Virus record (IMG/VR): IMGVR_UViG_3300023274_000046
DNA length: 64,000 nt
DNA from: a virus
Strand: one strand, 5' to 3'
Shown: positions 7,201 through 10,200 of the stretch, one piece after another
How the letters are laid out: every line of letters begins with the position of its first letter
Numbering within the stretch: position 1 is the stretch's first letter
Translations under genes and position numbers: made by a program
The notes under the pieces: model-generated
Seen by the model: only the letters and a program-made list of their open reading frames with translations
Database searches by the model: none
What the model was told of the DNA's origin: nothing

Positions 7201-10200
7201 AAAGAACTCCCCGCTTATAGTTTGTTGCGATAAATTTAATTTAAAGGGCCACATTTGACCGAAGAATCCATTTCTTCAAATTTAACTTTTCTATATTCTC
7301 TGGTTAAATTTAGGCACCGGTAGTTTAAACTCCGGGCTTGTATATCATTCATAAATGATAGAAGAAACCGACTGTATATTAAGCATCATTTCAGACATCT
7401 ACCAGTGAACCAGTCTGTAGCGGTCGCTTAAATAACCGACGGTCTTTAAATGATAAACTTATTGACCGTTAAAACTAATATCGCTAATATTTATATTACT
7501 TTTCCTTAAATTTATATTACTTTTCCTTATATTTATATTACTTTCCTTATATTTATAAAGATATATAAAATTTGAACAATCTTAATAGAGACCTATAAAC
7601 CTTGAACTTAAGAGTTGCAAGTAATAATAACTAAGTATTAACTAAGTCTAAGGTATGTTCAAAAAACATTCACTATTGGAGATCTTATCTATTTTTACAT
7701 CTGTCCCTATAGTGTCATAACTTATACGTAAAACCCTAACTTTTTTTCCGTCTTTAGTCTTTTAAGATTTACTGATTTATTAATAATTTTTACTTTCCCA
7801 GTTATTTCACGTCTTTTTAGTACATCTAAATTATTTTTATTAATAAGATTCTTATGAATATCTTTTCATAGTTTGTATGATAAAGATTTTTTAGTATATA
7901 ATGCATAATTTTCAAAATAAGGAAAAACGGTTTTACAATTGTTAACTCCTCCCAGTCTAAATTCATAAGTATTATCTTCTGAATGTAGAGAAACAATTCC
8001 TCCTTTGAATAATACACAAAAGTGTTCTAATATTTTTAGATTTATTTCTCACTTTTAGGATATATTAAAGTTGAAACTAAATCCTTTTTTTTCACTTATG
8101 GAACAAGTAAAACAACCTTCTCCATCCGTAAACCCTGCAAACCATGCATCATCAAAAAAAATAAATTTATTACTAACTATTACAGGTTCTAATCTTATTC
8201 TACCTTTAGTAACTCATTCATTAAACCCTTTAACGAAAATATCAAATTTTTCTTGTCTTTTAGGTAAAACAAGATTACCGTTAAATATACTAATAATAAT
8301 GTCTATTTCTCTCTTATTTTGTGTTACATATCTACTAGTAATAGCTGATTGGCGTATAACTTTACCAAATCCAAGAATTTCTTGTATAAATTCTAAAACT
8401 TGTTTATCAACTGTAGCTTGTGTAATAACAAATACTAAATCTCCTCTATTATTTACTATAAAAGAACCCTCTCCTTCAGTAAAACCTACTAATCAAGTTA
8501 AAAAGTTTTCTGATGGAGTTTTATTGTTTTGAAAATAGGCACTGTATTTCTCCTAAAATGCAATAAAACAAAAACCACTATTAAATGATACAGTACTATT
8601 AGAAGATATACTATCAAATATATATGGAATAACAAAGTAACACCCAATGTTATCATGTAGTTTAACAAAAGCTTCCATTTATGGACTAGCACTATATTGA
8701 AAATATAATTCTCAAGCTCTAGGTGCATCACAACTAATAGTACAACCACAAACACAATTGCAACCACAAACACTATTGCAATCACAAACACAATTGCAAC
8801 CACAAAAACAGTAGACTAATCCTACACTTAGTAACAAAATAAAAAAGTATAGTATTCAAGATGAATAATGATTAGCTGCAAAATTAAAGAATCTATCATA
8901 TAGAACAGCAGAGTTTTTAGCTCTACGTATCATAAGTAATAGCTTAATTAAAAAGAGTATAATTAAAAATAATATATTCACAGCTAACCCGATGTAATCT
9001 ATACTAAATAACTCAATACAAAATTTTTTTATAAAAGGTATGCTAATAATAGCTAAAGCAGATAACAGTAAAGACATTGTTACTAAGAACAATGGTGTTA
9101 AATAAATAAGCATAGTTTTAATAGATGAAAATGCAGTTAAACGAATACAAGGCAGTAAAAATGATCCATCAATATTTCATCAAGAATCATTAATAGCTGT
9201 TCAACCTGAACGATTAGGTCTTGGCCTTTTCACTCGTGATTCTTGTTCTAATTGTGGTTGTTGTTCTACTTGTGGCTCTTGTTGCATTTTTCGTTTTCGT
9301 CTTATCGCTCGTGGTTTTGGTTCCGGTTGTGGTTGTTGTTCTACTTGTGGTTGTTGTTCTACTTGTGGTTGTTGTTCTACTTGTGGCTCTTGTTCTATAT
9401 TCAATTTCATTTGACGTATTTCTTTTTTAAGCTCCGTAGTTTTTCATGGATTGCATTTCTCTGGGTCTGTTATTCTCAAGTCTAACTCACGATCCAAATC
9501 AGCTTGTAAATGATGTAATTGTTCACGATTACACATTCCACCTCTATATTTTCGTCATTGACTATATACACCAGTCCTATGTTCAGAGCTATTTAAAGAT
9601 GTAGGACATGAACGTAGGGGTATATTAGCAAATGCGTGAGGTTTAGGAGTATTATGTAGTTCAAATTTTGGAACAATAAAAATAAAAAATGTTGTGTAAG
9701 TTAAATAATCTAGATATACTCATTTTGAGAAAAGATGTTGGTATAATATAGGGTCACCTCCTCCTGCTACCTCAAAGAATGATGTATTAAAGTTACGGTC
9801 TGTTAATACCATTGTAATTCCCATTAAAATTGTTGATCTACTGGATGAAATCCCATAGCTTAAATTATTATTCTTTAAGCTTAAAAAGTTATTAAAACTT
9901 AGTGTAGATACGCAAACACTTACGCGCTTGATCGGACCATATCTTATATCTTTAAGTTGTAGAAGTTTTGTAAATGATCTCAAGTAAAATTTGTTCTGAA
10001 ATTGTTCATACCTGATTTGATCTTTACTATTTTTACCTTCCCTTCATCTGTATTATGCTCCTTTCTACCAAACATGTCTACTACTTCCATTCAATCTAAG
10101 GAATCCAAATGTTTAGTTCCAAATAGAGGGAATTGTAAAAGATAATCTTTAGCACGAATATTACCTTTAAGGTTAGTAGTTCTAACTCTATACTCAGGTT

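Follow-up and report, generated by a model that had tools for sequence, protein, structure and literature searches.

The window analysed here is the full 64,000-nucleotide stretch of IMG/VR record IMGVR_UViG_3300023274_000046. It is AT-rich mitochondrial DNA from a Pleosporales-type mitogenome, read with translation code 4, and its cox1 gene lies on the minus strand with many introns. DNA matching the window is present in metagenome runs from leaf litter and soil, leaf litter being the source of the mitogenome, which belongs to an uncultured organism. One cox1 intron, a group I intron at cox1-709, holds a LAGLIDADG endonuclease gene that is fused in frame to the exon before it. Inside this gene sits an insert of about 1.03 kb that starts like the end of Cox1 and finishes like the beginning of Cox2. 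This insert is the subject of the present analysis.

The locus

All features below are on the minus strand and most are given in reading direction. The term open reading frame is shortened to ORF, nucleotides to nt, and E is the expect value.

9728..9821, minus: cox1 exon (exon 7 of the initial annotation), ending ..DPILYQHLF plus the T of a Trp codon; RNA contigs join 9821 to the upstream exons
7269..9727, minus: group I intron at cox1-709, 2459 nt; splice joint in metatranscriptome contig X15, with the preceding exon ending in U and the intron in G
9663..9727, minus: resident leader of the intron ORF, in frame with the exon; matches the insert-free alleles P0054, P0057, P0060 and P0074, and has 82% DNA identity to L015
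9609..9662, minus: stretch like the Cox1 C-terminal tail; BLASTP E 2e-5 against native junctions
8730..9608, minus: 'type-1 linker' of 293 codons (the cargo of the initial annotation), described from its family, alignment A2, an AlphaFold2 model, hydropathy and tandem repeats
about 9557-9390, minus: type-1 linker part 1, a helical hairpin
9397-9232, minus: type-1 linker part 2, an EQQPQV minisatellite
about 9158-8799, minus: type-1 linker part 3, 3-4 hydrophobic helices
8810-8743, minus: type-1 linker part 4, a Cys-X-Cys minisatellite
8632..8729, minus: stretch like the N-terminus of mature Cox2, interrupted by a TAA
7722..8631, minus: resident ORF resumed, with a double-motif LAGLIDADG domain, now a pseudogene; matches PF00961 at E 3e-16 and 2e-11, and is 77-82% identical to cox1-709 endonucleases that are intact
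7269..7721, minus: 3' non-coding part of the intron, presumed to be the ribozyme core; no open frame, and 81-82% DNA identity persists here in L015 and L016
7256..7268, minus: 13-nt micro-exon GATTCTTCGGTCA directly 3' of the intron, based on 22 letters inside an RNA joint and a loose end at 7256

The intron is excised from the cox1 mRNA, junction insert included. A metatranscriptome contig links 9728 to 5189 through 22 letters that complete WFFGHPEV. From this joint, the 5' splice site follows the U at 9728, and the last G of the intron is at 7269. Low-depth RNA contigs cover the insert too, which is expected of a precursor or an excised intron and is no evidence for translation. An Rfam search of the cox1-709 intron gave no group I match.

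Past ..YQHLF the frame runs through a 22-codon leader, the Cox1-like stretch, 293 codons of linker, the Cox2-like stretch, a TAA, and then the LAGLIDADG part. The insert within it spans 9662 to about 8632, limits that are set by homology to cox1 and cox2. Both low-complexity parts of the linker, the Gln/Pro and the Cys stretch, are minisatellites of 18 nt in a tandem-repeat analysis.

The initial annotation had the letters and coordinates of this frame right. It also described a return to the resident LAGLIDADG in the same frame, but three stops intervene: a TAA at 8681-8679 after SASP, a TAG at 8555-8553 and a further stop at 8057-8055. Both LAGLIDADG halves match Pfam family PF00961, yet the latter two stops mean that there is no uninterrupted two-motif frame. 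With the TAA ahead of the endonuclease and two stops within it, the window copy cannot release an endonuclease.

A Pfam search found no domain within the insert, and the sole nearby enzyme is the intron's resident endonuclease. An autonomous mobile element would have its own enzyme, or defined termini with a target-site duplication; no enzyme of its own is seen in the insert, whose termini are mapped only to within a few codons.

Two further observations concern the surroundings. The 13-nt micro-exon at 7256-7268 is followed on the same strand by one of 9 nt, at about 6254-6264, and together these consecutive micro-exons spell ..WFFG and HPEV. They sit between three group I introns, and are supported by the 22 letters within the RNA joint. 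In addition, the protein encoded at 1844-2680 (minus strand, P0027) occurs, letter for letter, on a database contig of 247,230 bp, a hint that the mitogenome or its assembly could be exceptionally large.

The native cox1-cox2 joint

The native joint of this genome lies outside the window. It was taken from contig L013, found by searching for exact matches to window proteins. This contig shares window 1-10953 at 100% identity and reaches past the window's left end. There, about 3-4 kb beyond that end, cox1 and cox2 form a single fused gene (L013:13586-15556), in line with the adjacent or in-frame arrangement that the initial annotation gave for Pleosporales. The last cox1 exon ends ..LEWALHNPPKPHAFTSLPLQS, after which 131 residues follow without a stop, and then DAPRAWGLYFQDSASPQMEALVELHDD.., which is cox2 exon 1. 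The linker of 131 residues has a Cys-rich soluble part first and hydrophobic membrane helices after it, ending ..FINC before DAPRAW.

The two ends of the insert match the two sides of this joint, as had been proposed from their protein letters. The Cox2 head (window 8739-8632) has 81.5% DNA identity over 108 nt to the genome's own cox2 start (E 5e-26). The Cox1 tail has 85% DNA identity over 33 nt to its own cox1 3' end (E 2e-5). Both stand in the same order and orientation as in the native joint. The Cox2-like part also matches solved Cox2 chains at E 1e-5, with the alignment beginning at mature residue 1, an Asp; a search of the Cox1 tail against solved structures gave little or no result. 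The middle of the insert has no DNA similarity to this genome's own native joint.

Native linkers vary a great deal in length: 17 residues in L010:2192-3730, 74 in L005:2-1678, 131 in this genome and 178 in L004:16454-18571. In the three longer ones a soluble part comes first, and a hydrophobic stretch leads up to ..(N/S)C and DAPRAW; the linker of 17 residues is a single mildly hydrophobic stretch before the DAPRAW site. Linker-only comparison of this genome's linker gives a z of 6.2 with L004 and of 0.3 with L005, so linker similarity fades fast.

Two neighbouring frames deserve mention. Directly behind the native cox1/2 gene of L010, and before a copy of the module described below, lies an acidic ORF of 351 residues (L010:3735-4790) that belongs to no family and has repeats of the EQARL(D/E)SLQ type. 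In the last cox1 intron of the present genome, a GIY-YIG intron ORF (L013:12347-13570) has six copies of a PEQDPNSG repeat near its N-terminus, which is another minisatellite in an intron frame.

Insertion into the intron gene

The segment has been inserted into the LAGLIDADG frame that is resident at cox1-709, and is no normal part of the intron gene: hundreds of cox1-709 alleles are without it. This confirms what had been suspected from the frame. The LAGLIDADG part has 567 database homologues, the best of them 77-82% identical, and many are about 380 residues long, which is a Cox1 exon plus LAGLIDADG only. In the eight homologues that were read, among them those of Bipolaris cookei and Monilinia laxa, the exon-fused leader joins the LAGLIDADG directly, without this insert. 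This insert-free leader reads S-R-L-V-F-E-D-Y.. ..F-I-F-P and then about 20 residues. The same leader and the same downstream sequence flank the insert in the window. When DNA is aligned to two insert-free alleles, window 9677-8573 is unmatched where those alleles have 60 nt.

The Bipolaris cookei endonuclease (P0060) has a different insertion, of 20 residues, at the same point of the leader, after ..FIFP. The leader position thus looks tolerant of insertions.

Two other readings of the parts were dropped. A LAGLIDADG from a cox2 intron could have dragged its upstream exon along, but the genes closest to it come from cox1-709 introns and are fused to the same Cox1 exon. The stretches SKWVYLDY.. 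and IFDSISSNS.. were considered as a Cox1 tail and as the end of cox2 exon 1, respectively; both are resident intron-ORF leader.

The type-1 module and its relatives

The insert in the window is one member of a family. A word-indexed search with the type-1 linker found 22 protein relatives at 31-62% identity. A profile search across 1.84 billion representative sequences returned 54 clusters, all of them at most 450 residues long. Among the carriers is a culturable fungus, Stagonosporopsis vannaccii (P0023). A pattern scan of metagenomes for the module gave only four short loci. The distribution is patchy, and many related genomes are without it. In related mitogenomes the module, meaning the type-1 linker with what remains of its Cox1 and Cox2 ends, occurs in at least six contexts:

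same cox1-709 intron: L003, L004, L009, P0003, P0004, P0172
following a duplicated N-terminal part of nad2: P0009 group, L012
following an rps3-like N-terminus, 1.6 kb past a native cox1/2 gene: P0019, L010
directly after the atp6 3' end: P0181, L019
after the nad4 C-terminus: P0196
just upstream of a real cox2, with a leader of its own and a good Cox1 tail of 57 residues: P0021, L017, L018

The rps3 gene of Parastagonospora nodorum has been reported with a partial cox1 piece, and the rps3-leader copy is probably this published 'partial cox1 in rps3'.

Members of the family retain 30-57 residues of clear Cox1 tail. Many have lost the Cox2 head (the nad2-leader and atp6-adjacent copies, and others) or have an eroded Cox1 tail, with the core kept.

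In a maximum-likelihood tree a cox1-709 copy is sister to a free-standing copy (support 100/99), and the nad2-leader clade is nested among cox1-709 copies (96/93). The tree forces at least two context changes, with at least four label changes on branches of good support. A remnant of the intron leader (..FCIFPSF) is present in the nad2-leader copies and marks them as derived from an intron copy. The copies with the longest Cox1 tail cannot stem from intron copies, and one of them adjoins cox2, which points to an origin at the cox1-cox2 joint.

The idea of a mobile, junction-derived module is supported. The initial annotation proposed that a cox1-cox2 junction with variable cargo moves as a unit. 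The tree and the contexts agree with the movement. The 'cargo' however is no payload. It occupies the place of the fused-gene linker, which is hypervariable at the native locus.

The region before the real cox2 is a mosaic in L018:524-2437 and L017:865-3354. It has, in this order, the module with its Cox1 tail of 57 residues, a frameshift in the Cys repeat, a remnant of the Cox2 head, a remnant of the nad4 C-terminus, and an apparently full cox2 start. After the shift, all of this is in one frame. L017 also has a cox2 3' end upstream of the module.

A Met that is conserved in the hairpin resembled an internal start, since many database proteins begin at it. It was rejected as an artefact of gene calling with code 11, which stops at a TGA-encoded Trp seven codons upstream.

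A second copy in nad6 intron 1

The exon 1 of nad6 ends near 48080, which places a second copy inside nad6 intron 1, where it had been noticed before. This copy, at window 48312-50813 on the plus strand, lies between the halves of an interrupted LAGLIDADG and is in frame with a second, complete LAGLIDADG. Its Cox1 tail has 41 residues (85% over 108 nt against the native gene) and its Cox2 head 16 residues (85.5% over 62 nt). The 193 residues between them have only marginal likeness to native linkers, with linker-only z of 1.9-3.3. A match of copy 2 to the native joint at E 5e-17 is carried by the ends.

A close relative has the orthologue at the same place (L001:9959-11389) at 96-99% DNA identity, and there the second LAGLIDADG downstream is cut short by a stop. 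Between the two there are 6 synonymous and 19 non-synonymous changes, a ratio of 0.73, which is neutral. Copy 2 seems to have arisen from this lineage's joint as a derivative of its own. The two copies do not look like one cassette with swapped cargo.

Predicted fold and selection

The AlphaFold2 model was built on an alignment of 14 sequences and has a mean predicted local distance difference test score (pLDDT) of 57. Besides the hairpin discussed below, it has helices over residues 169-288, and leaves the Gln/Pro stretch and the Cys repeat disordered. Hydropathy gives three strong membrane segments in the type-1 linker. With three segments, the Cox2 head would come to lie on the outer face, where the native protein has it, but their predicted number is uncertain.

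Selection was measured among four cox1-709 copies. The pairs among them are not independent, and the copies were found through protein databases. The ratio of non-synonymous to synonymous substitution rates (dN/dS) is 0.7-1.2 overall, and no lower in the best-aligned block. Differences at first, second and third codon positions are 0.27, 0.23 and 0.20, so within the insert the third position varies least. In the neighbouring LAGLIDADG it varies most. The conserved amino acids in the block of the second and third membrane segments (TM2-TM3) were not accepted as a mark of purifying selection; the DNA there is little diverged, and dN/dS is not below 1.

The LAGLIDADG behind the module has decayed lightly in the window, and heavily in L003 and L004; the first 66 in-frame codons in L004 have four stops.

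Origin and function

It seems somewhat likelier than any single alternative, and in our view slightly better than an even guess, that the insert is a hitch-hiking chimeric membrane ORF, copied from the fused-gene joint by illegitimate recombination and tolerated in a permissive leader. It would be translated only from unspliced precursor, and it would be decaying here. The module is probably a passenger rather than a useful device.

The copied segment would comprise the last 18 Cox1 codons, a long membrane-helix linker and roughly the first 33 codons of mature Cox2. Its presumed source is a native junction bearing this linker type, by way of illegitimate recombination or break repair. The segment would have landed at a permissive spot in the N-terminal leader of the cox1-709 LAGLIDADG gene, and may later have spread by travelling with the intron and by further recombination. 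Any product would continue Cox1 residues 1-236. Its helices would enter the inner membrane in the orientation of the native polyprotein: the hairpin would face the matrix, and the Cys repeat and the Cox2 head would face outwards.

Not everything fits this picture. The type-1 linker scores no better than shuffles in linker-only comparison with three native linkers (z -0.3 to 1.4), so that an origin at a native joint is suggested by the ends of the module and by the L018 context. A common origin would still be compatible with these scores, given how quickly native linkers lose similarity among themselves. The frames are open for 344 codons in the window, 447 in L003 and 381 in L004, despite the decayed LAGLIDADG behind them. 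At the observed divergence, a neutral simulation expects about 6 stops in the 5' half, and the probability of none is about 0.002. Replacements are more conservative than in neutral simulations, with a BLOSUM score of -0.16 against -0.67 +/- 0.09 (0 of 400). The hairpin motif and the TM2-TM3 block are retained in very distant members, and AlphaFold2 folds the hairpin (residues 36-91) confidently, at pLDDT 84-92. Together, the open frames, conservative replacements, lasting motifs and confident hairpin suggest a selected product. The weight of this is uncertain: non-independent pairs, and ascertainment through protein databases, which favours open copies, inflate the signal of open frames and conservation. 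Our reading is that selection is weak, and acts for an open hydrophobic frame rather than for a specific amino-acid sequence.

The main rival takes these same points at face value. The type-1 module would then be a selected gene in its own right, a mitochondrial membrane protein born from the Cox1-Cox2 polyprotein linker. It could benefit the host, for instance by helping to assemble the oxidase or to handle copper on the outer face, or it could be selfish, like the ORFs of plant cytoplasmic male sterility (CMS). It would obtain expression by fusing to whatever translated leader it lands behind, and the module is indeed always in frame behind an expressed leader or with its own ATG. Open frames stand beside dead endonucleases in L003 and L004, where neutrality predicts stops, and the motifs are kept across 54 clusters. 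Yet dN/dS is about 1 with no third-position excess, copy 2 is neutral against its relative, the distribution is patchy, and the low-complexity parts are plain minisatellites. The window copy and several others are truncated or frameshifted, and what is known here comes from sequence and not from the protein level. This makes a gene of its own rather unlikely, if well ahead of being far-fetched. In a specific form of the idea, which we rate as unlikely, the Cox1-Cox2 linker is a released membrane-embedded polypeptide, cut out by the two Cox1/Cox2 processing events, and one type of it escaped to become a free selected gene that spreads behind translated leaders. If true, the fungal mitochondrial gene set would gain a lineage-specific protein gene, and there would be a direct way to study how two subunits arise from fused cox1/2 frames.

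At the other extreme, the insert could be a purely neutral, untranslated relic: a dead duplicated fragment of mitochondrial DNA that is open by chance. Duplication of gene fragments is common in large fungal mitogenomes, and a dN/dS of about 1, minisatellite expansion and the stops in the window copy and L009 all suit a relic. We nevertheless find it quite improbable. There are no stops in 344-447 codons across three lineages where about 6-9 are expected, hydrophobic character is kept beyond neutral expectation, and in all contexts seen the segment shares its frame with a translated stretch upstream. Most improbable of all is the function that the initial annotation suggested, in which the Cox1-end and Cox2-leader sites let mitochondrial proteases free cargo or endonuclease from exon-fused precursors. 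Both processing contexts of the native polyprotein are kept in order, solved mature Cox2 chains start exactly at the matching Asp, and in L009 the module continues without a stop into an apparently intact LAGLIDADG. In the window, however, the TAA comes before an endonuclease that is itself broken, so for this copy the function fails. For the family it is weakened, since either end can go while the core persists: several members have an eroded Cox1 tail, and nad2-leader, atp6-adjacent and other copies no longer have the Cox2 head. L003 and L004 retain the module and not the endonuclease, and insert-free alleles, which evidently work, are the rule. From the established topology of Cox2, the leader peptidase would moreover cut on the intermembrane-space side, freeing the endonuclease away from mitochondrial DNA.

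What the joint may tell us

Native linkers with membrane helices and a Cox2-leader-type end suggest a model for how one frame gives two subunits whose ends have opposite topologies: the helices would take the chain through the membrane, and the leader peptidase would then cut it. The ectopic copies show the joint to be a recombination-prone, transposable piece of coding sequence. Chimeric membrane ORFs arise from it within introns and downstream of gene fragments, in a way that resembles plant mitochondria. The module also bears on the growth of large fungal mitogenomes. This is of use for annotation, as such ORFs are at present labelled 'hypothetical protein' or 'partial cox1'. A literature search found no paper that describes the module or the long native linkers.

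Comparison with known systems

The Petunia pcf gene, involved in plant CMS, is a chimeric ORF of atp9, cox2 and an unknown frame. The module resembles such ORFs in joining fragments of respiratory genes to sequence of unknown origin, in predicting a membrane protein, and in riding on the transcript of a host gene. It differs in being fungal, in lying inside a spliced group I intron, in having spread to several contexts, and in being known from sequence with no known phenotype.

Endonuclease genes can also capture fragments of other genes. In Allomyces, a foreign atp6 C-terminus was brought along with a GIY-YIG gene, and the rps3-cox1 arrangement of P. nodorum is similar. As there, a piece of a respiratory gene adjoins an endonuclease gene in frame. 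Unlike in these cases, the captured piece does not flank the site at which the endonuclease is at home: cox1-709 is the native place of the LAGLIDADG, and the insert comes from the cox1-cox2 joint, about 13 kb away.

In yeast, the Cox2 leader is cleaved by the inner-membrane peptidase Imp1/Imp2. The insert has a comparable putative site, a hydrophobic stretch and then ..C followed by DAPRAW.., which aligns to the first residue of solved mature Cox2. Here, however, only the first 33 or so Cox2 residues follow, and the first Cox2 membrane helix is absent.

The closest known system is the fused cox1/cox2 frame itself. Such frames have been known since 1995 in Acanthamoeba and since 2007 in Pleosporales. 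They are carried by Stemphylium lycopersici, P. nodorum, Coniothyrium glycines and Exserohilum, and also by Acanthamoeba and Dictyostelium. The two ends of the insert are the two sides of this fusion joint, and the same genome bears the native fused gene. Published fusions are described as seamless or without spacer, whereas the native joints here and in relatives have linkers of 17-178 residues, with membrane helices in the longer ones. The segment studied here differs from all of these in being an ectopic copy of the joint within an intron.

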